50,528 nt of DNA, taken from Elusimicrobia bacterium LH_S2 (lineage in GTDB: Bacteria; CG03; SLGR01; JAGXOG01). Below are positions 24,445 through 50,181 of this stretch, piece after piece. A model generated the notes under the pieces. It was not told the origin of the DNA and did not search any database. It was given only the letters and a program-made list of their open reading frames with translations. Made by a program: the position numbers and the translations under genes. Within the stretch, counting starts at the first letter, position 1, and each line of letters starts with the position of its first letter. The stretch spans positions 1 through 50,528 of the forward strand of contig JAGXOG010000003.1 in NCBI GenBank assembly GCA_023660015.1, written 5' to 3'.

Positions 24445-24877
24445 AAGCCGTCTCATTTGACATTTCGTTTAATTTTTTTAACAGCTTACGGTCCGAAAGA
24501 TACCCAAGAAGCTCTATAGCCCTCTCCTTGTCTTCCCAGCTTACTTTTACCGGCTCATCCGGTATATCTGCCCGGGTTCCGGTCTGCTTCATAGAAAACC
24601 AGGACACTTTTTTTATAATAATGCTGTTCCCTCTCCGAAAATGATAACGGGTTTCGGCAAGTTTTCCTTCTATAATACAGCGACAGCCGGTTTCTTCGGT
24701 TACTTCCCGCAATGCCGCTTCTTTTTTAGTTTCTCCCTGCTCAATTTTACCCTTGGGGAAAGTCCAGAAGGGTGCTCTGTCTTTTTGGGGCTGAGATTTA
24801 ATAAGAAGAACCTTGCTGCCTCCATATACCAGTCCCCCCGAAGAAAATTCAAACTCTGTCTTAAGATTTTCAATCAT
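24443..24877 (-). CDS. NUDIX hydrolase
   Basis: Nudix box PKGKIEQGETKKEAALREVTEETG. Start placed at ATG 24877, overlapping the pcrA stop. Confidence 0.9.
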   Translation of the reverse strand: MIENLKTEFEFSSGGLVYGGSKVLLIKSQPQKDRAPFWTFPKGKIEQGETKKEAALREVTEETGCRCIIEGKLAETRYHFRRGNSIIIKKVSWFSMKQTGTRADIPDEPVKVSWEDKERAIELLGYLSDRKLLKKLNEMSNETA

Positions 24878-27800
24878 ATACGTATTCTTTGAGCCCGTCG
24901 TCTCCGAAACCGTCATCTCCGCCGTTAAGGGCCTCATCTATAAAACGCGAGGGTATATGCCACCTGGTCTGTCCATATAACATTCTCTGGGAGGCGCTGG
25001 TAAGATAAAGCTGTTCCTTTGCCCTGGTCATACCCACATAACAGAGCCGCCTTTCTTCCTCCATCTGAATTGGGTCATTTAACGCATCGTAGTGAGGGAA
25101 GAGTTCTTCTTCAAGGCCGGTGAGGAATACAACCTTAAATTCCAGGCCCTTGGCGATATGGAGAGTCATCAGGGTTATATACTCTCTGTCAGAATCCAGC
25201 GAGTCTGCTTCAGAGACCAGGGATATTTCATTTAATATCTCCTCAATATCCCGCTCTTTATTTTCTTCCTCGGCAAAAGCAGATACCAGTTCTTCAATAT
25301 TTTCAATCCGACTGCGGGCAGTAATGTCGTCTTTTTTCTCCAGCCACCTGTGGTATCCGGAGAGATTGATAACCTTTTTTACCAGTTCGTCCGGCGGGGC
25401 ATCTTCTCTCATCTTTTCCAAATGATTAAATAAATCTCTTAACGGAACCAACTTTTTTATGGTAGTGCCAGAAAGGCGCCGGCTGCCTTTCTTTATAAGT
25501 TCATATACAGAAATATTTTCTGCCCCTGCGGCCTCCCTTATGGACTGCTCTGTCTTTTTGCCTATGCGCCGGGGCGGACAGTTTATTATCCGGAGCATGC
25601 TTACATCGTCTTTCGGATTTACCAAAACCTTAAGATAACCCAGTATATCCTTAACTTCTTTTCTTGAATAAAACTTTACTCCTCCCAATATCTTATAGTG
25701 AAGCCGGGCTTTCCTAAGGCTGTCTTCAAAAGTTCTTGACTGGGCGTTGACCCGGTAAAATATTGCTATATCGCCGGGTTTGTATCCTTCATCTTCAATA
25801 AGCCGTACTGCTTCGGCTATCACCGACCGGGCTTCATCACGGTTTGAAAAAAATTCTTTATGTCTAACCCCTATTCCTCTTTCTTTTTGAGTCCAGAGTT
25901 TTTTTTCTTTGCGGGAAGGATTATTTTTTATTACATTATGAGCGGCATCCAGTATATTTCCGGTTGAACGGTAATTCTGCTCAAGTTTGATTATCTTTGC
26001 ATCTTTAAAATGATTTTCAAACTCCAGGATATTCCTTATGTCCGCCCCGCGCCAGCTATAAATTGAATTATGAACAACAATACCGCCGGCAATATAGTTT
26101 CTTAAATCAGGCACCGACAGATCATATACATACCCGTCATACTCCTCAGACTTGATTTCTTTTACCGTATCTTCTTTTATCTGACCATTTTCATAAACGG
26201 GAATAGCCATTTCAGGGTGCAGATGAGCTGCTGGCTGATAGAGATATGCCTTTTTTGAAGTCATCCTGGCTTTTTTAACAATCTCTGTACCTCCACAAGA
26301 AAACAACTTTCTAATAAACTCAATTCCCTCACCATAATTTTTCCTTGAAGCTTCAACTCTCCAAGTGTTTTTTTTGCCGCGGCGGACATTAATCCCTTTT
26401 TTATTGAGCTTCTCTTTAAACTTCTTATCCGAACTGTTAAGCTGAATCCTGTGCGCATGCCAGGGATTTTTCACAGAAGACCTGTTTTCGCCGAACATTG
26501 TAAAATTTATTATCTTGCGGTTAATGTGCTTATTTACATAACCACCGGCGATTAGGTGGGGAAACCGGGGATCAATATCCAGGCTTTTCATTAATTTTTG
26601 GCCGCGGGATACTGTATCTATATTCTGAAATAACCTAATAATTTTTTTCTGTTCTAAAACCATCTTACGGCCCTGCACATAAAAAACAGAAGTCGGTACA
26701 CCAAATTTAAATGCATAATATTGCTCATAATAAATAGCGCTATTTTGTTCTTTACAGGTTTTCAAAATCCATATCTTATCGGCTTTTTCCTGATTTAACC
26801 GCACCATAAGACCGTTTACGGTTTGATTACTTTTACGTTTACTCCTGACTCCTTGAGTAATTCCTATTCTGAACCCTAACTTTTTTTTATACATCAGATA
26901 TACATAATAAAGTCCGGCGGCGGGTTTAAGTTTTCCGAACATTATATGATTTGGCGTTAAACAGAGTTCTCTACCTTTTTTAGTTGTTATACGTAAAATT
27001 CTTCCGCTGTATTTCCGTTTTGAGATGTTATCTATATTTTTCACACCGCTTTTTCCGTGGCCGGTTGAACTTTTTAATTTTTCTCCCTTTCGGAAAGATT
27101 CAACTGACTTTTGTCCGCCGGGACATTCTATCGCTGTACCTTTGACAAGACACTGGTCATCGTCTCCGACCACGCAGATATTGTTTTGCGGAGGAATCAG
27201 GAACCTTATTAAAGTATATTGGGCGTAGTTGGTATCCTGGTATTCGTCCACCATTATATACTTGAATTTCTGCCGGTATTTTTTAAGAATTTCGGGGTAT
27301 TCTTTAAATAATTTTATGGTTTCAATTAAGAGGTCACCAAAATCATATCCCCCGTTTACCCGAAGTATATTTTCGTAACGCTGATAGATATCACCTACTA
27401 TATATCTTGCGCTGTCGGAGGCGGCAGAGGCATTTATTTTAAAGCTTTCCACATCTATAAGATTATTTTTGGCACCGGATATCATCTCTCTTATTCCGGG
27501 CGGCGGAAATTTCTTCGGGTCTATATCCATATCCTTAAGGCAATCTTTTATAACTACCAGTTGGTCTTTTTCGTCATATATCGTAAAACTCTTTTTACCG
27601 TCAAAACGCAGTATCTTTGTTGCCATGGAATGAAAAGTTGAAATCCAGACGCTGGAACCCGCGGGGCCTGCCAGTTTCTTTGCCCGGTCTTTCATCTCCC
27701 GCGCGGCTTTATTTGTAAAAGTTACAGCCAGTATGTTAAAGGGACGCACCCCCTCTTTTAACAGTTTTGCTATGCGGTGGACTATAAGCATAGTTTTGCC

Positions 27801-27905
27801 ACTGCCGGCACCGGCAAATATCAACAAGGGCCCGGCAGTATAATTAACTGCTCTTAGCTGTTCTTTATTTAAGTTTTTATTAATTTTTTTTATATTATTT
27901 TTCAT
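24870..27905 (-). CDS. pcrA: ATP-dependent DNA helicase PcrA/UvrD, intein-containing
   Basis: AGAGSGKT, TFTNKAA, VDEYQDTN, LEQNYRS, TLHIAKGLEF and EEERRLCYVGMTRA. Motif III VGDDDQ/SIY.WRGA is split by an insert. Confidence 0.96.
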   Translation of the reverse strand: MKNNIKKINKNLNKEQLRAVNYTAGPLLIFAGAGSGKTMLIVHRIAKLLKEGVRPFNILAVTFTNKAAREMKDRAKKLAGPAGSSVWISTFHSMATKILRFDGKKSFTIYDEKDQLVVIKDCLKDMDIDPKKFPPPGIREMISGAKNNLIDVESFKINASAASDSARYIVGDIYQRYENILRVNGGYDFGDLLIETIKLFKEYPEILKKYRQKFKYIMVDEYQDTNYAQYTLIRFLIPPQNNICVVGDDDQCLVKGTAIECPGGQKSVESFRKGEKLKSSTGHGKSGVKNIDNISKRKYSGRILRITTKKGRELCLTPNHIMFGKLKPAAGLYYVYLMYKKKLGFRIGITQGVRSKRKSNQTVNGLMVRLNQEKADKIWILKTCKEQNSAIYYEQYYAFKFGVPTSVFYVQGRKMVLEQKKIIRLFQNIDTVSRGQKLMKSLDIDPRFPHLIAGGYVNKHINRKIINFTMFGENRSSVKNPWHAHRIQLNSSDKKFKEKLNKKGINVRRGKKNTWRVEASRKNYGEGIEFIRKLFSCGGTEIVKKARMTSKKAYLYQPAAHLHPEMAIPVYENGQIKEDTVKEIKSEEYDGYVYDLSVPDLRNYIAGGIVVHNSIYSWRGADIRNILEFENHFKDAKIIKLEQNYRSTGNILDAAHNVIKNNPSRKEKKLWTQKERGIGVRHKEFFSNRDEARSVIAEAVRLIEDEGYKPGDIAIFYRVNAQSRTFEDSLRKARLHYKILGGVKFYSRKEVKDILGYLKVLVNPKDDVSMLRIINCPPRRIGKKTEQSIREAAGAENISVYELIKKGSRRLSGTTIKKLVPLRDLFNHLEKMREDAPPDELVKKVINLSGYHRWLEKKDDITARSRIENIEELVSAFAEEENKERDIEEILNEISLVSEADSLDSDREYITLMTLHIAKGLEFKVVFLTGLEEELFPHYDALNDPIQMEEERRLCYVGMTRAKEQLYLTSASQRMLYGQTRWHIPSRFIDEALNGGDDGFGDDGLKEYVYD
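26067..27152 (-). mobile_element. Intein (362 aa) in helicase motif III
   Basis: Starts CLVKGT, block B LTPNH, ends YVYDLSV..LRNYIAGGIVVHN followed by Ser+1. Confidence 0.95.
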
Positions 27906-32747: not shown

Positions 32748-35328
32748 CTATCTTTTCCTTACCGCCGGGATCTCTATTGCCTCGCCATATCGGTTTTTGC
32801 CGAGTATATCTTTCTGACGAAAACCCGGCGGCACTATTATATCAAGAATATTTGTGTCTGATTCATATTTCCTTCCGGAAAACCCATATTTATCCGTAAC
32901 AAGATTATCATTTACAGTGAGTAATTTACCGTCTTCGGCGGCGGCCATAACCGTTGCTGCGACACCCCAGTTTTGTACCGAAGTTTCTATTAATTCTTCA
33001 TCTATAAAAATATTTATAGTATCTGTCATCAAGCTGACACTCACTTCCGGTTCGCCTATTTTGTCACCAGCGGTATTATAAACAGCTTTCTTGTCGCCGC
33101 TGATAACTACTGCATACTCCCAGGCGTCTTCAGGCCTGAGGTAGGCCTTGCGTCCGGGCAACAATGAAGTATTGCCCAGCCCGGTTTTATTATTAATGTC
33201 TATATAGATATCTATCAGAGCATTCCCGAAACCGAGGGGAGCGTTATCTATATTATTTATGGAAGTAAACTGCAGGGCTATGACCTTTTCACCGCTGCGC
33301 TGATTAACATCAATTTTTCTGAAATCCGTATCTCCTTTATAATCTTCATATTCTTTACTTATGGCATAATTTCCCGGACCGTAATTATCAAGGGCGGGGT
33401 CTATATTGGAAATAATACTCCGGCTTGAATAAAGTTCAGGAGCTGTAATCTCCATATGTCCGCCGGCAGGCAAGATTTTCCCGTCTACCACTGTTTTCAT
33501 ATATATTTTTTTTCTTGACCGGACTCCGAAGTATTTAAAAGGCAAAGAAAACTCCAGAATGCTGCTGCTGTATCCTACATTGTAGTTGCCTGTCAAAGGG
33601 TCCCACTGCTCATCCTGAGATGCCCTGTATATTATAGTTTTTAGGGGGATAACTTTTTTCCAACTAACTTCGGTTGATATAGGAAAATCCTGAATAACTT
33701 CCGGAATATGTTTTAATTTGTCGGGGTAAAGAGCTGCAGCATCAGCATTCATGTGCCCCAGATTAACTCTTATTTCACTTGCAGAATCAGATGATATATC
33801 AAATCTAAAATATATATTGCTGCCGTCGAACCCGCACCAAAAACTTTTTATTATCTTAGAGTCAAAATTTACCCGGTAGGCGCCTTTCCATTCTCCCGGG
33901 CCTATTTTCCCATTACATTCCACATCTAAGGTATTGTTTATTTTTGCTGCCGGCTCTACGGGTTTCTTTTCTATAAGGGGCAAAAAATATTTCGGCGGGG
34001 GTGGCAGACCAATCTTACGGTATATCTCAATTAAGCTGCGCCGGAATATACGGTCATAATTTTTATTTGAAATATTATCCGTTAATATTCCCGACTCGGC
34101 CATTAAGAGCTTATTCTGTATATAAAAAAAGGTTATCCAGTTTAGCCCGGCCGGAATTTTTGTAACTGTAAAATACTTCACGGGTATCCTCTAAATAATT
34201 TTTAAGTTTTTGTAATTCGGCTTTTAACTTAACCCTGCCGGTTTTAAAAGACGAACTGCTCAGATTAACGGTTTGGGTTGTAAAATTAATAGAATATATT
34301 GAACTTTTCAATTCATCATAAGTTATATATTTATTATCTGTATTTTCAATAAAAGAGAGAAATTCCCGCGGTGTTTTTATGAAGGAAATAATATCTTGAT
34401 TTATTTTAGCAGTTGTAAAACTTTGAGTTGTATTTTTTATTTCAAAATTTCCCGGGGCTGTATATATTACCATCGGCCGGGTATTAATGCTTTGAGTTTC
34501 AACTATTTTTGTGGACTTCACCAAAATCCATTTAATATCGGTCTTTTCCAGTTCATCTATTCCATTATCTGTTATATATCCTCCTTTAGGCAAAAAACCT
34601 TCCGGAAAATCCCCTCTCCATTTTTTATATGCTACAAGCCCTTCAAGTATCTGAACTTTTGTCCGTTCAGAATCAAGTAAGGATAGATAAGCATTACTTA
34701 AAGTAGTAGTGGCTTCCCCGCGGTATTCGGTGTCCATAGTTTTTTGAAGTATTTCGCTGAAATTATTTAACTCTTTGGTTATTAGTTGTAAGACAGCTGA
34801 TTTTATCTTCGGAGTATAAGTGCTGATATCTACAAAATCCAAATAGGCTTCTGATTGACGTATTGCTTTTCCGATATAACTGTCAGCTTCTAAAATCTGC
34901 CCTTTAATAAAGGAGGAAGTACTATGGTTTAAATTATATTTGCCGGCAAGATACTCTGCCTGAGAATCGCTGAGTTCCTCAGGGTGCAGAGTTATAATAG
35001 GCGGCAAAGATATATCCCCATTTTTAATATCCTTTAAAAAATTTACGACATTACCAGATAATAATATATTTAAAGGAATATTTTTATAATCATTTTTAAT
35101 TATATAAAGAAAATCTCTCCATTCACCAAGGGCTTTTTTTTGAAATTCTGTTTCTGCATTATCGAGAGACGAAATTTCAAATTTTACCGTTAAAAAAATA
35201 TCTTTTTTGCCCGCCGTAGCCTCCGGAGGCTTTATCTCTTCCGGCGCAAGCCCCGGCTTCGCGCAGCCATAGATTAAAACGGCCCACAGTATCGGGATTA
35301 TTATTTTTATCAGGTCAGTTTTTCTCAA
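32748..35328 (-). CDS. GH57 amylopullulanase-like lipoprotein with glucodextranase/DOMON-like C-terminus, split by a +1 frameshift
   Basis: Lipobox IYGC. ORFs 34111..35328 and 32748..34181 join if the T7 run (34124-34130) is T6. Motifs AES...YDRIFR..L..IY...G.PPP, DPALDNYGPGNY, IDIYID and AWEYA. Confidence 0.65.
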
Positions 35329-35740
35329 GGATTACTCTGTATTCTTTTCTTCTTCCTGATATAATTTCCAAGTTCCGGTTCCATTTTTTATATCCCGGCT
35401 TAATTAATGTAAATAGCGGTTTTTCAACTCCGGATGTCGATACTATTTTAAATTTTACCGGCGTTTTGCCTTTATAATAACCGTTGACAAATACCTTTGC
35501 TTCGGCGGGGATAGATACTATTTTTATTTCCGCAGGGCCTTCCTTGGGTTTTAAACTTTCTTTCTCATTGCTTTTTTTCTCATTACTTTTTTTCTGAGCC
35601 GGTGCTGGTCTATTGTTTGCAAAATCGGGGGAAGGAAGAGGTTTTTTATCTCCAGAAATATACCCATAAAGAAGATATCCTGCAAAAAATAGAATAATAA
35701 CATTAACGGCCAGAATAATTAACAGCCCGGGTTTTTTCAT
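35315..35740 (-). CDS. PEGA domain membrane-anchored protein
   Basis: N-terminal TM; SIPAEAKVFVNGYYKGKTP and KPGY..W. Confidence 0.85.
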   Translation of the reverse strand: MKKPGLLIILAVNVIILFFAGYLLYGYISGDKKPLPSPDFANNRPAPAQKKSNEKKSNEKESLKPKEGPAEIKIVSIPAEAKVFVNGYYKGKTPVKFKIVSTSGVEKPLFTLIKPGYKKWNRNLEIISGRRKEYRVILEKN

Positions 35741-36228
35741 TCGATTAACTTTTTAATCCGGTTGTTAAACTTTGCTATGCTTCCGTCGAGAGATTCAAAC
35801 ATTTCCTCAAAATTTTCGGTTCCCTCGACTTTTTCCGACAACAACTTAATATCTTCTTTTAAATTTTTAACCTGTTTTATCTCTTTCTTTAAAAGAGCAG
35901 CGGCCTTGTTACTTAATTCCTGAGCTTTTTTTAACTGCTGTGAAATTTCAGGGGGCAGTTCGGCTGGTTTTTCCGAAGAGCTCTTTTCTTCCAAATCTTT
36001 AAGTTTATCAAGTATTCCCCATAACTGGTCTTCAATTTTAGAATTATTCTCTTCGGCAACATTTACTATCTCTTTAATCTGGTCAATAGCATTAGAACTT
36101 AATGAATTTGCGCCGGACTTGTCGGTCTTATCGGAATTTTTCCATACCATTGTCCACAATACAAGATTCAATATCGCAAAGATAATGGCCAGCGCCGCAA
36201 ATATAATTACCGGGTTTATGGTTTCCAT
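35737..36228 (-). CDS. Hypothetical protein, N-terminal TM plus coiled coil
   Basis: SD AAGGAG, hydrophobic N-terminus, heptad-rich remainder, ATGA overlap with the next gene. Confidence 0.7.
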   Translation of the reverse strand: METINPVIIFAALAIIFAILNLVLWTMVWKNSDKTDKSGANSLSSNAIDQIKEIVNVAEENNSKIEDQLWGILDKLKDLEEKSSSEKPAELPPEISQQLKKAQELSNKAAALLKKEIKQVKNLKEDIKLLSEKVEGTENFEEMFESLDGSIAKFNNRIKKLIE

Positions 36229-39581: not shown

Positions 39582-40583
39582 TCATTTTAATTGCCCCAGC
39601 TTTAAAAACATATTTGAAATCGCTAGTTCTCTGTTAGCATTTTTATTTAAGCTGGCGATGGTTTCTTCTATAATTTTCATCCTATAGAAACGCTTCTCAG
39701 TCGGGGTTTTGCGAAACTCATAACCCTCTATCTGAAGCATAATATTTAACTTGCTCAAACTTTCGGGCTTATCCCCCATCCATTTTTTTATATCCTTAAA
39801 AAATTTTTCGGACTTCATACTGCCTATCTTTATATTACCTACCTGAGAATATTTAACTAATTTACCCGGCGAACCGGCGGAAATTTTTATTTCTTTGGCC
39901 GGATCTTTTATATTATCCTTTAAATCGGGCCTTAAACTTAAAAAATCATTCATCTCAGAGTCCGTCAGGGGACTAAACCTATATTCCTGGCACCTGGAAA
40001 TTATAGTTGCCGGTAGTAAATCACCCGACGATGTAACAAGAAAAAAATAAGTATTTTCCGGCGGTTCCTCAAGTATTTTTAAAAGGCAGTTTAATGCAGC
40101 TCTACTTGCTGCGGCCGCATCGTCTATTATAAATACTTTCTTTAAGGTTTTATAGGATTTCAGAAATGCTTCCTTTTTAACTTCCCGTATCTGGTCTATA
40201 TTTATCTTAACGGTTTTATTCGAAGAGCTCTCCGACTGTCCGTCAGCGCCTGTTTGTTTTATGGCGTTTATATTCTTTAATTTTACTTTTTCGTCCGCTG
40301 AGTATTTAGCAACCATCTCTTTCTCATTCTTCGGGGATCCCACAAACCTTACCGTAGGATGATTGCCTGTTCTTAGTTTTTTGCAGGACCCGCAAAGGCC
40401 GCAGCCACCGTCTTCTTTTTTGTCTCCGCAATTTAACGCTGCCGCCAAAGAAACTGCTGCCAACCTCTTCCCGATGCCTTCCGGTCCGGTAAATAGAATC
40501 CCGTGAGGAATACGGCCGGTCTTTAACATTTTCTTCAGTCTTTCAATATTATGTCTGTGCCCGGCAATCAAACTAAAATTCAT
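39582..40583 (-). CDS. holB: DNA polymerase III delta prime subunit
   Basis: GPEGIGK, CGLCGSC, LLKILEEPP and TIISRC; follows tmk. Confidence 0.92.
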   Translation of the reverse strand: MNFSLIAGHRHNIERLKKMLKTGRIPHGILFTGPEGIGKRLAAVSLAAALNCGDKKEDGGCGLCGSCKKLRTGNHPTVRFVGSPKNEKEMVAKYSADEKVKLKNINAIKQTGADGQSESSSNKTVKINIDQIREVKKEAFLKSYKTLKKVFIIDDAAAASRAALNCLLKILEEPPENTYFFLVTSSGDLLPATIISRCQEYRFSPLTDSEMNDFLSLRPDLKDNIKDPAKEIKISAGSPGKLVKYSQVGNIKIGSMKSEKFFKDIKKWMGDKPESLSKLNIMLQIEGYEFRKTPTEKRFYRMKIIEETIASLNKNANRELAISNMFLKLGQLK

Positions 40584-41206
40584 ATAATATCCCGCTTCCT
40601 TAGAATATCTATAATCCCCTCTTTAATTACTTCCTCCGTATTAAGGGCGGATACCACTTCAATATTTCTGTCCTCGGAAGCAATCTCAAGATATCCGTTT
40701 CTTACCTTTTCATGAAAGGTTACATTTTCGGATTCCAACCTGTCTAATTTACCTTCAGAGGATTTAACCCTTTTTAAACCTGTTTTAATGTCAATATCAA
40801 GTATTACTGTTAAATTCGGCTTAATTCCCCCCGTAGCTATATAATTAAGCTGCCCTATGAGCTCCTTTGAAAGGCCCCGGCCGTAACCCTGGTAAGCTAT
40901 ACTTGCATGGGTAAACCTCTCACATATAACAAATTTGGAATTTTTAAGCGCCGGCATAATTTTTTCCCGGGTATGCTGCGCCCTTCCGGCTGCATAAAGC
41001 AAAAGCTCGGCTGTAGGATAAATCCGGCTCTTAGTATCGAGTAAAATTTCTCTTAACTGTTCGGCTATGCTTACTCCCCCCGGCTCCCTGGTGCAGACCA
41101 CTTCGCGGCCGCAATTGCGGATATAGTCGGCAACAAGGAGGGCCTGGGTGGATTTACCCGAGCCTTCCGGTCCCTCTAAAGTTATAAATTTTCCCTTACT
41201 CATCAT
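40580..41206 (-). CDS. tmk: Thymidylate kinase
   Basis: EGPEGSGKST, TREPGG and SIAYQG. Confidence 0.96.
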   Translation of the reverse strand: MMSKGKFITLEGPEGSGKSTQALLVADYIRNCGREVVCTREPGGVSIAEQLREILLDTKSRIYPTAELLLYAAGRAQHTREKIMPALKNSKFVICERFTHASIAYQGYGRGLSKELIGQLNYIATGGIKPNLTVILDIDIKTGLKRVKSSEGKLDRLESENVTFHEKVRNGYLEIASEDRNIEVVSALNTEEVIKEGIIDILRKRDII

Positions 41207-41726
41207 TACCGCGCTGGCATCTTAAATTTATTTTTTTACTTAAATTTGCGCTCTCCCCGCCCTGGGAAACTGTCAATGTAGCTCCGATATAAGAGTACTC
41301 TGAATCATCGAACCACACGTAAAATTTATCAACTCCGGCAGTAACCAGAGTAGTTGTGCTGCCTTTTAAGTACCGTCTCAGTACGCTTTCCGAGTCCGGC
41401 TTAAAATATTTTATATATAAATTAGAGTGGCCCCAGTCGGCTGTGGACTTATTTATTTTAAAAAGGACAGATTCGTTGCTTTCCCCTATGGTTATCGGCT
41501 CCGAAGACGACTGCCTTATATATTTGGACATCTCGTCCATCGTCGAGCGTGCGGCCGAATATACATCAACAGAATCCCGCGTGCTCCACCAAACGTCAAA
41601 AGTGCTCTGAAAAAATTTAATTGCGCCGTACATAAGTATCCCGGCAAGAGCAATTACTATACCGAGTTCCACCATAGTTATTCCCCTGTTATTATTTATT
41701 TTTTTCATTAGATTATCCTTTATCAT
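41196..41726 (-). CDS. Type IV minor pilin/pseudopilin (PilW/PulJ-like)
   Basis: Class III signal NNRG|ITMVELGIVIAL; AR..MDEM...IRQ helix. Confidence 0.8.
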   Translation of the reverse strand: MIKDNLMKKINNNRGITMVELGIVIALAGILMYGAIKFFQSTFDVWWSTRDSVDVYSAARSTMDEMSKYIRQSSSEPITIGESNESVLFKINKSTADWGHSNLYIKYFKPDSESVLRRYLKGSTTTLVTAGVDKFYVWFDDSEYSYIGATLTVSQGGESANLSKKINLRCQRGNDE

Positions 41727-42682
41727 ATTTCAAATGACAGCATCAATTGATGATTATTATTTATCGCGGAATTCAATAACATTCCATAGTCAAATTTGAT
41801 ATTATTATATTGCATCCCTACCCCAAAAGTAAAATTTTTAATTTCATAATTAAATTTATACCCCATCCTTAAAAAAAACCGGTTGTCCACCCGGTATTCT
41901 AAACCCAGAGAATTTTTAATGCTGCTTTCATTGTCTTTTAGAGTCTCTGATAAAACATTTACCGCATGTCGGTTATTAAATCTTAAATAGTATGCCATGC
42001 CCGCGCGAAACATTATCGGCTGCGGAGCCAAGTGACTTCTATATTTAATTCCTTGCCCCAGGTTTTTAATTGAAACTCCAATATTTAATCCCTCCGAATA
42101 AACCCGGTTAACCCAACAAATATTGCCTTTTTCAAATAACCCGGTATCAAAAAATATACCTGCATCCGAAGAAATCGCAGAAGCGCTGTATTGTTCCAGC
42201 AGGGTTGAGCTGTAATATTTTCCCGCCAATCCCAGGCTTATTACTTTTGACAATTCTTTGGAAATTATTATCGATGCTATGTAATCACTCTGAGCATTTA
42301 GTGTTTCAGCGTTATTTACTTCCTCCGAGTCGTTTATGGTTATATCTCCCCCGTTAAAACCCAGAAAAGTTATACCAATATCCATAAGGCCGTTCTTTTT
42401 CCCGGCTCCCAAATAATAAATACCGGCATCTGAAAAAGAACTGTCATACAAAGCCGATACGGAAAAATTATTGATTGAAGAAAGGACTGCCGGATTATAA
42501 TTAATTGAGTTAAAATCTTTATGCAAAGCCGTTCCGCCTGCCCCCATAGCGTTTTGTCTTACTCCCGGCAGGTATTTAAGAATTACTCCGCCGGCAGTTC
42601 CTGCGCAAAAGCCGAAAGTTGCCGCACCCGGGAGGAACAAGACCGAAAAAAAGGAAATCTTTAATAACTGCTTTTTAAGCAT
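41723..42682 (-). CDS. PorV/PorQ-like outer-membrane beta-barrel
   Basis: Signal peptide, GVRQNAMG and YNPA motifs, N.G...KY, amphipathic strands LRMGY and FTFGVG. Confidence 0.75.
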   Translation of the reverse strand: MLKKQLLKISFFSVLFLPGAATFGFCAGTAGGVILKYLPGVRQNAMGAGGTALHKDFNSINYNPAVLSSINNFSVSALYDSSFSDAGIYYLGAGKKNGLMDIGITFLGFNGGDITINDSEEVNNAETLNAQSDYIASIIISKELSKVISLGLAGKYYSSTLLEQYSASAISSDAGIFFDTGLFEKGNICWVNRVYSEGLNIGVSIKNLGQGIKYRSHLAPQPIMFRAGMAYYLRFNNRHAVNVLSETLKDNESSIKNSLGLEYRVDNRFFLRMGYKFNYEIKNFTFGVGMQYNNIKFDYGMLLNSAINNNHQLMLSFEI

Positions 42683-42685
42683 CCC

Positions 42686-45028
42686 TTACCTTACGACAAC
42701 TACTTTCTCTGTATCTTCTTCACCCGCCGCCTGGATATTAACATAATAGATGCCGCTTGCCACAATATCACTGTTGTCTGTCTTTCCGCACCATTTAACA
42801 GGCTCTTCGTTTCCATTAATGACATACTCATCAAAAACAGTTTTCACGAGCTCACCCATAATATTGAAAATCCTTAACTTTACTCGGCTATCTTTGATTA
42901 TATCATATCCTATTTCAACTGCATCGCTCTTATCTCCTGGTCTTCTCATCAGATTATTATTTATAGTCAGAAGCTTCAGAATCTGAATACCGTCGCTCCA
43001 GTCAGTCCATCCTGTATAGTGCGGAGACTCAGGATTCCATAATCCATCAGGATCTCCCGGGGTTCCATAAATATCTGGTCTGTAAGTAGAGGTGGGGATA
43101 CTCTGAGCATACCCATGACGGGCTTTCACTCTCACGTAATAGGTATGGTATAATTGCCCCTTATCATATCTATATTCAGCGCTGTCATCAGATTCCCAAA
43201 TTCCGTCGTTTGCCAAACTCCGATTAAGTTCTTTATCAATAACGATTTTTTTATCGCCGTCTTCGTCCACCTCTTTGATCTGGATATAGCATCCAAAAAT
43301 TCCGGTCTCAGGGTCAGAAGCAGTTCCTTTTGCCCAATTAAAAATCAATTTATTATTATATGTAGCCAAACCATCGTCTGTAGGAATAGAAGGTTTACCG
43401 GTTGGGCCTGTATCGTCTTCAAAAGACTGTTGTTCCGACCAGCCTTCTCCGTAAAAATCTGTCCAGGAATATCCTAATGATGAATCTATTGTCTGCACGG
43501 CCCAGTAATAGTTGGAACCTGTTACATTAAGCACTCTTACATTTTTATATCCACTTACATCTACATCGCTGCCTATATCGGAATCACTTATTGTCCCTGA
43601 AGTAGCCTTTGTTAAATAATTACCCAAAAGAGGGGAACCGTATCTTGCAGGAACAATATCAGAAGTCCCCGAAGAACTCCCCACCCGGAAGTTATAAATA
43701 AATCCATCAGTGGGTGTCTCTTCGTTACTATCAACCGGAGGATCATTCCACATGATATAGAATTTATTGTTATAATATCTGGAGTTAAAATAGTCTTTGC
43801 CTTGAGGCACTTTGGGAGGAATATTATTGGGATTGCCATCGTCAGCGGTATCATTTTTCATTAGACGGGATATAGGATCGCCAGAGCTGTTTTCGCCTGT
43901 CATGAAAAGGTCAATATCATCATCACCATCATAATCGCCCCACCGGATAGACCCTAACTCTATACCGGAACCTAAATCATAATAATCAGAAAAATAAGGA
44001 GCGCTGGAAATAAGAGTTCTGGGACTATTTCCATCATTTCCCAAAACCGCAAGATCCATATCACCATCATTATCAGCATCCCCCCACGCTATCTCACTGT
44101 TAGTTAGTTGAGGAAGGGAAAAAGTCGAAGATGTAAAAGTATAGTTGCCTGTTCCGTTATTGGTATATATTTCAGTATATTGTCCGCCACTAAAAGGAGT
44201 CTCTCCAGAGATTGTTATATCAATCCAGCCGTCGTTATTATAGTCGCAGGCTCCAAGCGAACCCAGACCTAATCCTCTGATAGTGGAAGTATCTTTGGTA
44301 AACTCTCCCCGGTTATTTTTAAATATCACAGTTACTGCTTTATCGTTTGTATTTTTACCCATCTGTACTAAATCTAACCAGCCATTATTATTTAAATCTG
44401 CCCAGACAAAATCTCCGCTAGCAACATTTTCTAAAGTAATCCCGGAATTTTTTAGTATTCCTTGAACATTCTTAAATAATAATCCTAATTTTTCTCCTTC
44501 TCCCATCCCTAATACTGCTAAATCCAGCCAGCCATCATTGTTGTAATCGCCCCAGGCTAAGGCAGAATCTTTTACTCCATCGAGAGTCTGAGATATCTCA
44601 AAATTTCCGTGATCATTCCTGTATATTATAGTCCACCTTTTCGTATCCTTACCTGAGTCCTCGCCACTAATAGCTAAATCCAGCCAACCATCGTTGTTGT
44701 AATCACCCCAGGCTAAATCTCCAAAAGCTAATTCCTTGAATTCTTTATTTGTTTTCTGAAGTATATCCGAATCATCATTTTTGTATAAATTTTCGTATAA
44801 TATGGTATGCAAATTATCCAAAGAATCTTTTCCGCATACAGCTAAATCCCAGTCGCCATCATTGTCGTAATCCCCCCAGCTTGATGCAGAGTTTTTAAGG
44901 TTCTTTATGCTGAATGAAACTTCCTCGGAAAAATCAGCATTGATTTCATTAGGCAAGAAAATCAAAAAAAAAAAAACAAAAATGTTAAGTATAAAAATTT
45001 TCAGGGAAAAGTTCATTTTAGTAATCAC
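42686..45028 (-). CDS. FG-GAP/VCBS beta-propeller surface protein with FN3-like domains and a FlgD-Ig/T9SS-type C-terminal domain
   Basis: Seven WGDYxNDGxxDL-type repeats; YYWAVQ and YYVRVKA strands; C-terminus IFNIMGELVKT...W.G.......ASGIYYV...KVVVVR. Confidence 0.85.
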   Translation of the reverse strand: MITKMNFSLKIFILNIFVFFFLIFLPNEINADFSEEVSFSIKNLKNSASSWGDYDNDGDWDLAVCGKDSLDNLHTILYENLYKNDDSDILQKTNKEFKELAFGDLAWGDYNNDGWLDLAISGEDSGKDTKRWTIIYRNDHGNFEISQTLDGVKDSALAWGDYNNDGWLDLAVLGMGEGEKLGLLFKNVQGILKNSGITLENVASGDFVWADLNNNGWLDLVQMGKNTNDKAVTVIFKNNRGEFTKDTSTIRGLGLGSLGACDYNNDGWIDITISGETPFSGGQYTEIYTNNGTGNYTFTSSTFSLPQLTNSEIAWGDADNDGDMDLAVLGNDGNSPRTLISSAPYFSDYYDLGSGIELGSIRWGDYDGDDDIDLFMTGENSSGDPISRLMKNDTADDGNPNNIPPKVPQGKDYFNSRYYNNKFYIMWNDPPVDSNEETPTDGFIYNFRVGSSSGTSDIVPARYGSPLLGNYLTKATSGTISDSDIGSDVDVSGYKNVRVLNVTGSNYYWAVQTIDSSLGYSWTDFYGEGWSEQQSFEDDTGPTGKPSIPTDDGLATYNNKLIFNWAKGTASDPETGIFGCYIQIKEVDEDGDKKIVIDKELNRSLANDGIWESDDSAEYRYDKGQLYHTYYVRVKARHGYAQSIPTSTYRPDIYGTPGDPDGLWNPESPHYTGWTDWSDGIQILKLLTINNNLMRRPGDKSDAVEIGYDIIKDSRVKLRIFNIMGELVKTVFDEYVINGNEEPVKWCGKTDNSDIVASGIYYVNIQAAGEEDTEKVVVVR
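44964..44976 (-). repeat. T13 homopolymer in the adhesin signal peptide
   Basis: 13 consecutive A on the + strand, encoding VFFFL in frame. Confidence 0.9.
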
Positions 45029-45064
45029 AAACTATTTCGTGTCTTTTATCTTTTATTAAAAGTT

Positions 45065-46387
45065 CTACTTTTCCTCCCATGATATCACATTTATATCTTC
45101 ATTTTCGTCACTTTCGTTCAGCGGAACATCAAAGACATCATCGGAATAGTTAAACTCTATATTGGAATCTGCCTTTAATTCCTCTCCTGCTGCAACAATC
45201 CCTAAAATATCTACATTAGAATTTACTTTAATATCTCTGGCAGCTTGAATAATACCATTTAATTCCACATTGGATTCTATATCTATATCCTCAGCTATCC
45301 AGTCACCTCCGGCAACAATAAAATTTGCTTTTGCATATCCATCTCCTTCACCATTAATATTTGACGTTATAATGATACCATTATCCCAGTTACTGCTATC
45401 CCCGGCTGCACCGTCTACCACAAAAGTTCCCGAACCTGCAAGAACTATATTGCTGTCAAATTCAACTCCGTTATCATAGTAATATACATTTCCATTTAGG
45501 TTTAAGGTTTCATCTGAACTAAATTCAATCCTTCCGTTCCCAACATCAGTTCCTTTCCCTCCAAAAGTATAGTCTGTTTCATCGGCATTTTCTATTAAGT
45601 TATCTGTATCTACGAATTGGACTTCATCAGAATCTAATTCTTCAGTTTTGTCTGAATCATCATTTTCCACTATTGTGGGTTTAGGAGAGGATTTAAAATT
45701 GTCACCATTGGGATCACTGTCTTCGTTGCCATCTATCACTCCTTGAGCTCTGATTTCCCTCGTTCCGGTTGCTTCATTATCTTCATCAAAATAAAAATTA
45801 GAATCAATTTCTATGGCCGAATCCAGATCATCAGTGAGTAATGTGCTGTCAGATGCAGTATAGATAGCTACATCCCCATTGTTGTCAGGATAAAAATGTA
45901 CATTAGATTGAATTATTATGAGGTCATTAGAAAAAACTACTCCGTAGACATCTACATTAGAAGAAAAAGAACCGGTCTCTCCACTGATTGCTGAATAATC
46001 AGGGTATCCAGCACTCGCATTAACTTTAACACGGATAGAACGTTCTTCTTTAATATCTGATTGTGAAGGAACATACCCGGTAGAATCTATTTGGTATTTC
46101 TTATCGCCCAGAGAAGTGATATCAACTACTGCCTCCCCCTCCTTATCTCCGGTTCCGATGCCTACATAAACAGTAAAATCCGAATACTTACTCTTTTTTA
46201 TATTACAAATCGCCTTTTCAATTCCCGCATCGGCAACATAGAGCGCTGAAGTTCCCAGCCGGCTTTTCACCTCTTTGCTGGTTTCGCCGGTAGTAAGCAC
46301 GACCATGGATACACCGAGAACACCAAGAACTACCATCATAAGTATTGCCGCCACGAGCGCCATACCTTTATTGTTTTTAATCTGCAT
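45065..46387 (-). CDS. PilX-like minor pilin with a long acidic repeat-containing C-terminal domain
   Basis: NNKG|MALVAAIL (no Glu5, as in PilX/GspK), ALYVADAGIE.A, I.STG, terminal ISWEE; repeated xSN[VIF] motifs. Confidence 0.82.
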   Translation of the reverse strand: MQIKNNKGMALVAAILMMVVLGVLGVSMVVLTTGETSKEVKSRLGTSALYVADAGIEKAICNIKKSKYSDFTVYVGIGTGDKEGEAVVDITSLGDKKYQIDSTGYVPSQSDIKEERSIRVKVNASAGYPDYSAISGETGSFSSNVDVYGVVFSNDLIIIQSNVHFYPDNNGDVAIYTASDSTLLTDDLDSAIEIDSNFYFDEDNEATGTREIRAQGVIDGNEDSDPNGDNFKSSPKPTIVENDDSDKTEELDSDEVQFVDTDNLIENADETDYTFGGKGTDVGNGRIEFSSDETLNLNGNVYYYDNGVEFDSNIVLAGSGTFVVDGAAGDSSNWDNGIIITSNINGEGDGYAKANFIVAGGDWIAEDIDIESNVELNGIIQAARDIKVNSNVDILGIVAAGEELKADSNIEFNYSDDVFDVPLNESDENEDINVISWEEK

Positions 46388-46427
46388 TTAGGTTACCTCC
46401 CCTAAACTAAAAAATTTATTCGTTTTC

Positions 46428-46832
46428 TTAGTCACTATCGGAGTAGTCTGCAACATATGAAACTATCCTCAATTCCTGCGGGTTACTTAATTCCGTCCAG
46501 CTGACTTTAATTCCTATTTCTTTGAGCCCTTCTTCCAACTCTGATATATTTACAACTCTGGTAAATTTTTTACTGGTTCCCAATACTTTTGTGGTAGATG
46601 TAAAAGCGGAGTCAGTTATATCATCATAGTAGTAGCTCTTTATATTTTCCATCTCATCCGAAGCCCAGTTTGCGGCCATCGTCTGCATTTTGGACTGATT
46701 TAAGGCAATATTATTTTTTATAAACATCTTGGCAAATCCCATAACGACATAAGTTATAATCGCCGCAGCGAGAATTATCTCCAGATACGTAATTCCACTG
46801 CTGTTTTTTTTATTTTTGTTAATATTTTTCAT
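46428..46832 (-). CDS. Type IV minor pilin (PilV-like)
   Basis: SSG|ITYLEIILA, A...ME.IK, FTR.V and VSW. Start placed at the second Met. Confidence 0.8.
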   Translation of the reverse strand: MKNINKNKKNSSGITYLEIILAAAIITYVVMGFAKMFIKNNIALNQSKMQTMAANWASDEMENIKSYYYDDITDSAFTSTTKVLGTSKKFTRVVNISELEEGLKEIGIKVSWTELSNPQELRIVSYVADYSDSD

Positions 46833-46901
46833 ATCAGATACTTGCGATAAAGTAATAATACATTTATTACTTATTATCAACTTTTACTTTATCATTACGC
46901 C

Positions 46902-47304
46902 TTATTCACCGGAAAGCGTCAGTAAACCAGCGGCAGCAATATTTTTGTCTATTTCAACTTTGCCCTCTACTTTAAAAATTCCGTCCTTCTCCTCTTTTAA
47001 TGTAACATCTATCTTTAATATGTCATCGGGTTCGATAGTCTGGCGAAACTTTACTTTATCTACGCCGCTTAACTTAATGTCTCCCCTACCTATTACCGCC
47101 ATAGCGGTCTGGGCCATAGATTCCATTATCAAAACCCCGGGCATAATCGGACGTCCGGGAAAATGTCCCTCGAAGAAATACTCGTCGCCGATAAGTTTTT
47201 TTATACCTCTCCCTTCTTTGCCTTTGCGGGTAACCTTAACTTCGTCTATAAGCAAAAAAAGGACTTCTAAAAGGCAGTATCTTTTTAATCTCTGTTTTTT
47301 TCAT
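46902..47304 (-). CDS. fabZ: 3-hydroxyacyl-ACP dehydratase FabZ with a +1 frameshift near the 5' end
   Basis: MKKTEIKKILPFRSPF from ATG 47304 joins LLIDEV if T7 (47254-47260) is T6; FF.GHFPG.PIMPGVL..E..AQ intact. Confidence 0.9.
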
Positions 47305-48878: not shown

Positions 48879-49835
48879 CTATTCCCGTATCAGACCGGTC
48901 CCATACTTTTTTATAAGAATATCGGCAAGGTATATAGCCAGCAGACCGGTTAAAATACCCGCTACCGAATCTGTTATATAATGATACCTGTTATAGACGA
49001 CAGAAACAGATAAGAGGGCCACCGAGGGTAGATAAAAATAAAATAGTTTTCTGACATAAAACCCCATCATCACCATGGAGACAAAGGCCACCGCGATATG
49101 AGAGGATGGCATGCATCCGCCGTACATTGACCCGTATCTCATAATATAGTTCTGCAGTCCGGTAAAGTGGTATCCTCTTAACGCTTTAGTTTCTTTATCC
49201 TGTAATTCTTCTGCCACATGAGGGCCGTAATATTCGCCTATTTTAACGGTATAGTCTTTGGCGTACTTTCGGTAAAACTCATACCTGGGGCCCCGGACGG
49301 GAAAAATTATAAAAGTCAGGTAAGAAAGGTAAAATGCTATACAGACCGCCGCAAGAAACCTGATATAATCTTTTCTTTTTCTGAAAAAATAAAGCGCGAC
49401 AGCCGCCACCGGTACCATAAGATAGTAAGTAAAATAATTAAATTTCATTAACTCGGTAAGAGCGGGAGTTATAAACCTCTCCAAATAGAGGGAAGGGTGC
49501 ACTCCAAACAAATTATATTCAAAATTAAAGATAAAACTGTCATACCACCGATTCGTCAATATAGAGGTAAATCTGTCTACTTCCCGATAATTAAATGTAA
49601 AGAGGATTATAGGATACCACCACCTGAGAAAATTTAAGAGTTTATTTTTACTTCTTTCCAGGATAGGCGCAAATTTAATAACCATAAATATGATAATAAA
49701 ATGCAGCGCGCTATAAAGATACGGATACCTCACCCCACTATTGAAAAATAATAATACCGCCCCGGTAAGCGCTAAGTAAGTGATAAATATTATATCTACT
49801 ATATTTAATCTATTTTTTTTCTTTTCGGCTCTCAT
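48879..49835 (-). CDS. PAP2-family (IPC-synthase-like) membrane phosphatase/phosphotransferase
   Basis: FP..GPR, MPSSH and RYHY..D motifs with TM helices. Confidence 0.85.
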   Translation of the reverse strand: MRAEKKKNRLNIVDIIFITYLALTGAVLLFFNSGVRYPYLYSALHFIIIFMVIKFAPILERSKNKLLNFLRWWYPIILFTFNYREVDRFTSILTNRWYDSFIFNFEYNLFGVHPSLYLERFITPALTELMKFNYFTYYLMVPVAAVALYFFRKRKDYIRFLAAVCIAFYLSYLTFIIFPVRGPRYEFYRKYAKDYTVKIGEYYGPHVAEELQDKETKALRGYHFTGLQNYIMRYGSMYGGCMPSSHIAVAFVSMVMMGFYVRKLFYFYLPSVALLSVSVVYNRYHYITDSVAGILTGLLAIYLADILIKKYGTGLIRE

Positions 49836-50181
49836 TTATAATTTCATCGGTCACCATTTCTATTACACAGTCGTTCTGCTCGGCAACAGTATCATCGAGT
49901 TTAAGCCCTACGAGGTATTTATCCTCCGAGACTCTCACCCACTGGACATTCCCTACAAGGGGTGCAAGATCACTTTTCATTTTTAACTGCAGACGGATCA
50001 GCAGGCCGGGGTAAAGTTTTTCGCTGACTTCAAACATTACCCCCTGCGCGCTTATATCCTTTATATAGCCGTCAAGTCCGGAAAGAGCCATATCCGCTGT
50101 TTCTACAATAACGGGCACATTGTATTTTACCCTTATATATTCCCGGCCTTCTTCTCCTTTCTTTTTTTCTTTGTCATTCAT
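49810..50181 (-). CDS. Stand-alone PilZ domain protein
   Basis: REYIR (RxxxR) and DISAQG (DxSxxG), V.WV and VGLK. Confidence 0.85.
   Translation of the reverse strand: MNDKEKKKGEEGREYIRVKYNVPVIVETADMALSGLDGYIKDISAQGVMFEVSEKLYPGLLIRLQLKMKSDLAPLVGNVQWVRVSEDKYLVGLKLDDTVAEQNDCVIEMVTDEIINESRKEKK

Follow-up and report, generated by a model that had tools for sequence, protein, structure and literature searches.

We analysed a 50,528-nucleotide stretch of DNA from the uncultured Elusimicrobia bacterium LH_S2 (contig JAGXOG010000003.1 of assembly GCA_023660015.1; hereafter the window), in which five packed minus-strand genes lie between fabZ and tmk. [quoted passage not shown] A preliminary description, made from the letters of the window, had reported five closely spaced co-directional genes running into tmk, and the coordinates of the open reading frames (ORFs) bear this out: intergenic gaps of 40, 36 and 3 bp are followed by overlaps of 4 bp (barrel and last pilin) and 11 bp (last pilin and tmk). 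The whole array reads fabZ, the five genes, tmk, holB, PSP1 and metG, with a 4-bp overlap between tmk and holB. As detailed below, the parts are of familiar kinds and their combination in a pilus-tip operon is conserved and dedicated; it is new to the literature that we searched. The five genes and their two flanks are as follows.

46428 to 46880, minus strand: PilV/GspI-like minor pilin, 150 aa as listed, with a class-III signal and sub-threshold matches to hidden Markov models (HMMs)
45065 to 46387, minus strand: PilX_N/ComZ-like tip pilin, 440 aa, with a sub-threshold PilX_N match and a structure model matching ComZ
42686 to 45028, minus strand: integrin-like secreted adhesin, 780 aa, identified by FG-GAP_3 (E 1.5e-26) and a structure model
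41723 to 42682, minus strand: PorV/PorQ-family outer-membrane barrel, 319 aa, NF033709 132.8 bits
41196 to 41726, minus strand: minor pilin in the PilW/GspJ position, 176 aa as listed, with a class-III signal and a sub-threshold N_methyl match
40580 to 41206, minus strand: tmk (dTMP kinase), the downstream flank, TIGR00041 177.7 bits against a cut-off of 83.25
46902 to 47255, minus strand: fabZ, the upstream flank, FabA domain E 1.1e-19

The host genome (label G000), of which the window is contig C64, is an Elusimicrobiota metagenome-assembled genome of 1.04 Mb in 130 contigs and is 66.6% complete. It was compared with 25 genomes from the same phylum (labelled G001 onward) and with 15 outgroup genomes, and the flanks of the relatives were annotated with profiles built from the host genome.

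The arrangement recurs among the relatives. An FG-GAP/CTD adhesin was found inside the pilin cassette in 15 of the 25, so the arrangement is not due to chance. Within the taxonomic order of the window, 10 of 13 relatives have the adhesin in the cassette (G001, G002, G003, G005, G006, G008, G009, G010, G011 and G013), and in nine of these ten a PorV/PorQ-family barrel stands beside it, the barrel of G006 being hidden by a contig break. The series pilW-tmk-holB follows in eight of the ten (G001, G002, G003, G006, G008, G010, G011 and G013); PSP1 also follows holB in seven of those eight, and the contig of G001 ends within holB. On the other side, fabZ precedes pilV in G001, G002, G003, G006, G009, G011 and G012, the last on a contig that ends after pilX. 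With the queries used, neither PilX nor the adhesin was found in G004 and G007. When the adhesin was searched for with a query of its non-propeller domains 2-3 (E<1e-30 counting as a strong orthologue), strong orthologues were recovered in 10 relatives and the host genome, all 11 of them in the cassette and none elsewhere. The preliminary description had allowed that the adhesin/barrel pair might not be linked to pilins in relatives, and these counts speak clearly for the linkage.

In the families f8 and f9, five of 11 genomes (G015, G016, G020, G021 and G023) have pilV-pilX followed by a longer adhesin of 1400-1520 aa. A barrel of 383-420 aa comes next in G015 and G021; it is detected weakly, at E ~1e-7, by the profile built from the host genome, is not recognised by NCBIfam and carries a C-terminal TPR, and that of G021 also gives a faint PorP_SprF (PF11751) match (E 0.005). 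G022 has pilV-pilX-pilW with nothing between, and G017 and G020 have an extra, paralogous GspE-GspF-pilin-pilin-PilX cluster. In three further Elusimicrobiota loci (L063-L065) the frame pilV-PilX-...-pilW-tmk-holB-PSP1-metG is kept, but the barrel is missing and the middle is taken up by different proteins, secreted or PilX-like; the placement of the cassette upstream of tmk is thus old. The interval between pilX and pilW is therefore a variable slot, of which the adhesin/barrel pair is the commonest occupant in our sample. At two of the family f8 loci (L037 in G016 and L040 in G015), FtsZ-like and PilT-like genes (judged by eye) and then a Cu-oxidase_4 laccase-like gene lie 5' of pilV.

Two sets of control loci frame these counts. 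Among 79 PilX_N loci of many phyla, 72 had no PorV-like ORF, six were this cassette and one, in Glassbacteria, had a barrel on the opposite strand. When the adhesin alignment was used to scan metagenomes, the generic FG-GAP pattern prevailed: each of the 80 loci that it returned encoded a distant propeller protein, and the scan is usable solely as a negative control. None of the 80 had a barrel or these pilins nearby.

The first and last pilins are recognised by their signals and the largest by its fold. In the PilV-like protein the class-III signal G|ITYLE precedes a hydrophobic helix; the protein matches PilV (TIGR02523, E 2.5e-5) and gspI (E 0.021), both under cut-off. Its translation probably begins at the ATG at 46832 (M17), for a length of about 134 aa like that of the same-genus orthologue. 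The PilW-position protein, which probably starts at M7 (41708), has the class-III signal G|ITMVE with a hydrophobic helix and an N_methyl match of E 0.0018 (18.2 bits against a cut-off of 21.2). The 440-aa PilX-like protein carries the motif G|MALVA, without Glu at +5, and matches PilX_N at E 0.0046 (17.4 bits against 25.5). Its AlphaFold model, built from a 13-row alignment, has a mean predicted local distance difference test (pLDDT) score of 83.4 and shows a helix at residues 7-64 followed by a beta-solenoid. In a Foldseek search of the PDB the best matches of this model were three chains (B, C and A) of 6qvi, ComZ of Thermus thermophilus (E 1.9e-8 to 4.3e-8, probability 1.0, template modelling (TM) score 0.39-0.41, sequence identity 10-12%), and the next matches, ice-binding beta-helices, were far behind. 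Searches of the PDB by PilX profile and by adhesin and barrel sequence returned nothing useful.

As modelled, the PilX-like protein thus joins a pilin helix to an inserted beta-solenoid, the combination that marks a ComZ-like tip pilin. The class-III signals, together with a prepilin peptidase in the genome, place the first and last proteins among type IV minor pilins, with family HMMs under their cut-offs. The peptidase (Peptidase_A24, 47.6 bits, over cut-off) lies on contig C109 beside a major-pilin-like gene. The pilus core of the host genome further includes three full-length PilB/GspE-type ATPases with two shorter matches and one secretin, and the 1.4-kb contig C1 adds two more minor-pilin-like genes. 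A search of this genome for FliG_C gave no match. At E<=0.001 the PilX-like protein is present in 19 of the 25 relatives and in none of the 15 outgroups. The full-length gene was recovered at 11 loci, eight from Elusimicrobia/Elusimicrobiota, one labelled Caldiserica and two without a label.

The model of the adhesin (40-row alignment, pLDDT 84.4) comprises a signal helix (residues 7-23), a seven-blade FG-GAP propeller (33-392), an immunoglobulin (Ig)-like domain (414-540) that holds the most conserved motifs of its family, a fibronectin type III (fn3)-like domain (561-638), a low-confidence linker and a C-terminal sandwich (681-778). Its best Foldseek matches in the PDB are integrin alpha ectodomains (4mmz_A, E 4.9e-14). 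The protein carries repeated DxDxDG-type motifs; PilY1 is not among its listed structure matches, and it has no PF05567 match. The CTD is modelled as a seven-strand beta-sandwich with pLDDT >90, and matches models of both type A (Por_Secre_tail (PF18962), 15.5 bits, E 0.022; TIGR04183, 16.5 bits, E 0.0063) and type B (CHU_C (PF13585), 20.4 bits, E 5.5e-4) sorting domains, as well as FlgD_ig (17.4 bits, E 0.0045), all under cut-off. Listed homologues of the adhesin carry PF13860 or PF18962, and for two of them the source gives the name 'T9SS type A sorting domain-containing'. The long adhesins of families f8 and f9 keep the head, that is, the propeller and the first Ig-like domain, and the CTD is visibly kept in four of the five, the frame of G023 being cut by a contig end. 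Their extra length sits between head and CTD, as would be expected for a C-terminally anchored stalk. When the PilX-like protein and residues 32-560 of the adhesin were put through complex prediction, the scores were 0.00, 0.53 and 0.00 (mark 0.32); the prediction used one crop and counts neither way.

The weak HMM calls for the pilins and the CTD are thus backed by structure models, the PilX-like protein by its match to ComZ and the adhesin by the sandwich at 681-778. Of the assignments in the preliminary description, the FG-GAP propeller has its HMM match at E 1.5e-26, the T9SS-type CTD is backed by its modelled fold with its HMMs sub-threshold, and the PilV-, PilX- and PilW-like pilins find support in signal motifs and the ComZ fold while every family HMM stays sub-threshold.

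The barrel, by contrast with these sub-threshold calls, scores 132.8 bits against NF033709 (PorV/PorQ family, cut-off 90), covering model positions 6-325 of 326, and its cassette orthologues score similarly (116.6 in G002, 129.3 in G009). Since it reaches 82.4 bits against the PorV equivalog NF033710 (cut-off 250) and 41.2 against PorQ (cut-off 220), it is, by sequence, a member of the PorV/PorQ family and not a PorV orthologue. The doubt raised in the preliminary description, that the barrel might not be PorV-like, is removed by the family score. It has no PF11751 (PorP_SprF) match. In a tree of nine cassette barrels and 14 paralogues from the host genome (with fragments from C14 and C65, a 79-aa piece from G001 and the family f8 barrels excluded), the nine form one clade with support of 100/99, which spans five families. 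Monophyly of the cassette barrels argues for a long-standing, dedicated partner of the adhesin. Within the clade, the genomes in which the barrel comes first cluster together (support 100/100), and the window barrel groups with those of G010 and G005, from other families, and not with those of G002 and G003 from its own family.

The pairing of CTD protein and barrel is general in the host genome. NF033709 matches at 19 places, with 10 genes over cut-off, and an iterated ORF search gave 18 PorV-like ORFs, amounting to 17 genes, and 13 ORFs ending in the same CTD. Every one of the 13 CTD ORFs adjoins a PorV-like gene, 12 with the barrel immediately downstream (one pair on C11 with a 90-aa ORF in between) and one, on C37, with it upstream. 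Seen from the barrel side, 14 of 17 PorV-like genes lie beside a CTD gene; of the three that do not, two are at contig ends. Only the pair in the window has pilins beside it. Since the remaining 12 stand without pilins nearby, CTD-barrel pairing works without a pilus, and with a SprA-like pore also in the genome no pilus is needed to explain the pair. Seven PorV-like barrel genes share a 27-kb island on C11 (141-26784), where six of them directly follow a CTD-bearing gene. Two barrels (C11 4466-6484, 672 aa, and C39 19104-21059, 651 aa) have a C-terminal extension matching the CTD profile. One PorV-like gene (C65 3385-4743, minus strand) is split by a single in-frame TAG, for which a pseudogene, a sequencing error or read-through is possible.

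The SprA/Sov-like candidate is a 1692-aa ORF (C37 13049-18127, minus strand) whose match to TIGR04189 is split into five collinear segments (81, 76.5, 35.4, 17.2 and 15.2 bits), none of which alone reaches the 200-bit cut-off. A comparable frame (~1440-1760 aa) is present in 24 of the 25 relatives, the one without it being a 63%-complete genome, and in nine of the 15 outgroups, five of them over cut-off. PorV/PorQ-family matches occur in all 25 relatives, with 6-35 each, and in 10 of 15 outgroups. The SprA-like ORF adjoins lptF/G-like permease genes (judged by eye) and a barrel/CTD pair in reversed order.

Other parts of a canonical T9SS were not recovered. The PorU sortase model (NF033707, cut-off 420) gave seven matches in the host genome, the best at 53.5 bits, all at model positions 950-1094; their confinement to the last ~150 positions is due to the CTDs of the same cargo genes. 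GldM models (TIGR03517 and PF12081) matched nothing in the host genome, the 25 relatives or the 15 outgroups. GldL (TIGR03513) was absent from the host genome and the outgroups, with one sub-threshold match among the relatives (G001), and GldK (TIGR03525) had no match in the 66.6%-complete host genome. PilY1 (PF05567) was found neither in the host genome nor in any of the 25 relatives, with one weak match in the outgroups. The GldM, GldL and PilY1 models gave no significant match even in outgroups with a canonical SprA, that is, they lack a positive control, so these absences are only weakly established. The preliminary description had considered that a complete canonical T9SS and a separate PilY1 might account for all parts. 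No canonical motor, sortase or PilY1 turned up, a result that for the motor and PilY1 carries little weight.

The central genes of the cassette differ in order and in degree of conservation from those around them. The adhesin precedes the barrel in the host genome, G005, G008, G010 and G013, and follows it in G001, G002, G003, G009, G011 and probably G006; 3-bp gaps and 4-bp overlaps persist even in the flipped order. Between the host genome and G001, of the same genus, the outer genes are the better conserved (HEAT 59% identity, fabZ 78%, pilV 86.8%, pilW 79.8%, tmk 78%, holB 66%), whereas PilX is 38%, the adhesin 44% and the barrel 37% identical (the last over 74 aligned residues only), with adhesin and barrel in flipped order. 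Low central identity and flipped order between conserved pilin flanks indicate that the three central genes were replaced or diverged as a block. In the congeneric pair G002/G003 identity is 59-65% in the centre and 66-81% in housekeeping genes; the flanking pilins stand at 59% (pilV) and 70% (pilW). Across pairwise-identity matrices, pilW follows tmk (r 0.55) and the adhesin does not (r 0.11); adhesin identities correlate modestly with those of PilX (Spearman r 0.48, Mantel p 0.008, seven genomes), pilW (r 0.41) and the barrel (r 0.35). In several genomes the type of PilX also assorts independently of that of adhesin and barrel: G010 has the closest adhesin and barrel to those of the window and a PilX only 31% identical, and in G009 the barrel groups with those of G002/G003/G011 and the PilX with that of G001.

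How these parts relate to one another may be read in several ways. We tentatively lean, at somewhat less than even confidence, towards an adhesin that is tethered to the outer membrane and is co-produced and co-selected with the pilus tip without being a pilus subunit itself. The locus would then be a conserved Elusimicrobiota adhesion cassette of three tip or priming pilins and a cargo/carrier pair of type IX kind. The integrin-like propeller protein, which has a signal peptide, would be exported by Sec, cross the outer membrane via the shortened SprA-like pore of the phylum and stay attached to its own PorV/PorQ-family barrel by its C-terminal sandwich, probably uncleaved because no PorU-type sortase was found; the propeller head would be held off the cell on the Ig/fn3 stalk domains. 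With the pilins from the same operon, a long-range tip and a short-range adhesin would be made together and diversify as one surface-recognition unit. We favour this tethered adhesin because elsewhere in the genome barrel modules do without pili, because a pilus-borne protein would need no barrel and because the long forms are stalk-like. A number of points weigh against it. We infer the docking of the CTD on the barrel, export through the SprA-like pore and the surface location of the adhesin from homology and synteny, and that adhesin and pilus act together is likewise suggested by sequence comparison. The CTD scores fall below curated cut-offs. Block divergence rests on one congeneric pair, with 74 residues compared for the barrel, and the dip in G002/G003 is mild; the Mantel correlations, from 6-9 related genomes, are too weak to settle co-evolution. 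Gene calls in the relatives come from our own simple ORF caller. Moreover, the adhesin stands exactly where classical minor-pilin operons have PilY1, and no PilY1 was found in the host genome or the 25 relatives, which favours a tip adhesin, and the barrel-less secreted or PilX-like proteins that fill the slot in other lineages suggest that it may suit pilus-associated proteins.

A propeller protein that replaces PilY1 and rides the PilV/PilX/PilW tip, with the barrel as a staging or docking partner for the CTD before loading or after retraction, seems to us rather unlikely. It would account for the place of the adhesin after pilX and before the last pilin, for a large secreted beta-propeller with DxDxDG-type motifs, for the silence of PF05567 in host and relatives and for the use of the same slot by other secreted proteins, and the ComZ-like pilin diverges with the adhesin in the congeneric pair (their identities correlate modestly). 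However, the adhesin has no PilY1 homology and has the fold of integrin alpha chains, a tip protein exported through a secretin would need no outer-membrane barrel and yet a dedicated barrel clade is kept, PilX and adhesin/barrel types assort independently in several genomes such as G010 and G009, and the absence of PilY1 is weakly based, the model being silent in the control genomes too. A combined version, in which the propeller protein is a working PilY1 handed to or off the pilus tip by a type-IX-style CTD/PorV-like carrier and PilX, adhesin and barrel swap between strains, we consider unlikely. At the other extreme, the pair may be a mere neighbour of the pilins, a mobile surface-protein cassette in a permissive slot of a housekeeping operon. 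Twelve other pairs in the host genome do without pilins, the content of the slot varies (from nothing in G022 to other genes in L063-L065), and co-direction alone says little since the array continues into tmk-holB-PSP1-metG. Against a chance neighbour stand the 11 of 11 strong adhesin orthologues inside the cassette, the dedicated barrel clade across five families, the short gaps and overlaps that survive the flip in order, and the controls, in which no FG-GAP locus of 80 had pilins or barrel and 72 of 79 PilX_N loci lacked a PorV-like ORF; we therefore find it doubtful. Very improbable, finally, is pseudopilus export, in which a GspI/J/K tip of a type II secretion system (T2SS)-like machine would push the adhesin through the secretin for the barrel to capture its CTD, or, in a wider form, the pilins would stand in for PorLM. 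The sizes of the three pilins are like those of I, J and K, the largest lacks Glu5, GspE-GspF-pilin-pilin-PilX clusters exist in G017 and G020, and the relatives show no GldM and a single sub-threshold GldL, with no GldK in the host genome. Yet a SprA-like pore is available, the motor models lack a positive control, and with one of 13 CTD/barrel pairs flanked by pilins, the pilins cannot be a general energiser. The notion that pilins generally power CTD export was accordingly rejected, 12 of the 13 pairs being without them.

The preliminary description had gone further and proposed a hybrid of pilus and T9SS. Nothing that it had named as speaking against such a machine was found. We regard the proposal as partly supported: the CTD/barrel pair proved to be general in the genome, and a physical coupling of this one to the pilus, as a PilY1 replacement or in pseudopilus-driven export, is suggested by synteny and joint divergence.

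A promoter and terminator scan gave no excess over shuffled sequence (promoters 40 against 29.8, standard deviation 4.9; terminators 8 against 6.9), and the single clear terminator, at 48515-48484, lies upstream of the cassette. About 3 kb upstream and in the same direction, the window encodes a stand-alone PilZ-domain protein of the cyclic di-GMP receptor family (49810-50181, minus strand). In G006 a similar ORF of 120 aa lies 5' of fabZ, the likeness being judged by eye on the first residues. A run of envelope genes 5' of metG (32748-36228, minus strand) includes a Glucodextran_C/SLH-like protein of 477 aa and a PEGA-domain protein, together with proteins of 405 aa and 163 aa, the former without a Pfam match and the latter without a match. 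Further along, a UvrD/Rep-type helicase of 1011 aa (24870-27905, minus strand) carries, between its N- and C-terminal helicase domains, an intein recognised by Intein_splicing (residues 286-613). Flanked by a Mur-ligase-like gene and a Crp-family regulator, an ORF of 670 aa (7580-9592, minus strand) has no Pfam match at E<=1e-5.

Across the phylum a SprA-like pore is kept along with private cargo/barrel pairs by the dozen, and in several families one dedicated pair is locked in a pilus-tip operon. Should the parts cooperate, they would reveal a new route by which a pilus lacking PilY1 is equipped or complemented with an adhesin, and would show T9SS-type carriers working without the known motor. 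The PilX-adhesin-barrel block has diverged sharply between congeners. This suggests a cassette for surface recognition at the strain level, which, if confirmed, may offer a handle on the attachment targets of uncultured Elusimicrobiota cells.

To our knowledge, published accounts restrict parts of type IX secretion to Bacteroidota and their close allies and treat them as distinct from type IV pili. In the literature searched, which did not extend to supplementary gene tables, we found no reported T9SS or PorV for Elusimicrobia and no publication in which minor pilins or PilY1 are joined with barrels of PorV type or with T9SS CTDs. The closest counterpart on the pilus side is PilY1 of type IVa pili, a large secreted beta-propeller protein encoded after pilX in the minor-pilin operon (fimU-pilVWXY1Y2E in Pseudomonas; also in Myxococcus). 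The adhesin is likewise a secreted propeller protein after pilX, but its propeller is N-terminal and of FG-GAP/integrin type, and it has no PF05567, a T9SS-like CTD and a barrel. The T2SS tip complex GspK-GspI-GspJ is built of three pilin-like proteins graded in size, of which the largest lacks Glu5. The three pilins here share both properties, whereas no GspK, GspI or GspJ HMM exceeds its cut-off and no core T2SS genes adjoin the cassette in the window's order of Elusimicrobiota. The attachment complex of Porphyromonas gingivalis, with its PorZ-PorQ and PorU-PorV sub-complexes, places an uncleaved CTD surface protein on a PorV/PorQ-family barrel. The arrangement that we propose for the adhesin is similar, but theirs is one sortase complex in a full T9SS, while here there would be a one-to-one display module with at least 13 copies in the genome. 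ComZ (PDB 6qvi) is described as a competence-associated tip pilin of T. thermophilus (Salleh et al., 2019, PMC6561018). The modelled PilX-like protein shares with it the pilin helix and beta-solenoid, a likeness of fold only, and differs in operon content and, at 10-12% identity, in sequence.

On the carrier side, the genes for type B cargo and barrel adjoin in Bacteroidota. In that phylum, type A cargo leaves SprA on PorV and type B cargo on alternative anchoring carriers, as set out by Lauber et al. (2024, PMC10994853). PorP-PG1035 and SprF-SprB are given as type-B-CTD cargo/carrier pairs by Gorasia et al. (2022, PMC9143113), where the barrel is proposed to act as a surface anchor via the CTD without PorU or PorV. 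As with the PorP and SprF carriers, each cargo in the host genome has its own adjoining barrel gene (13 of 13 CTD ORFs). Unlike in the Bacteroidota T9SS, PorL/M, PorK and PorU were not found here; unlike the PorP and SprF carriers, the barrel is of the PorV/PorQ family and not PorP_SprF, the phylum is Elusimicrobiota and the pair lies within a minor-pilin operon. Because each CTD cargo has a private barrel, the Elusimicrobiota pairs appear to follow the logic of type B carriers, but with barrels of the PorV/PorQ family.

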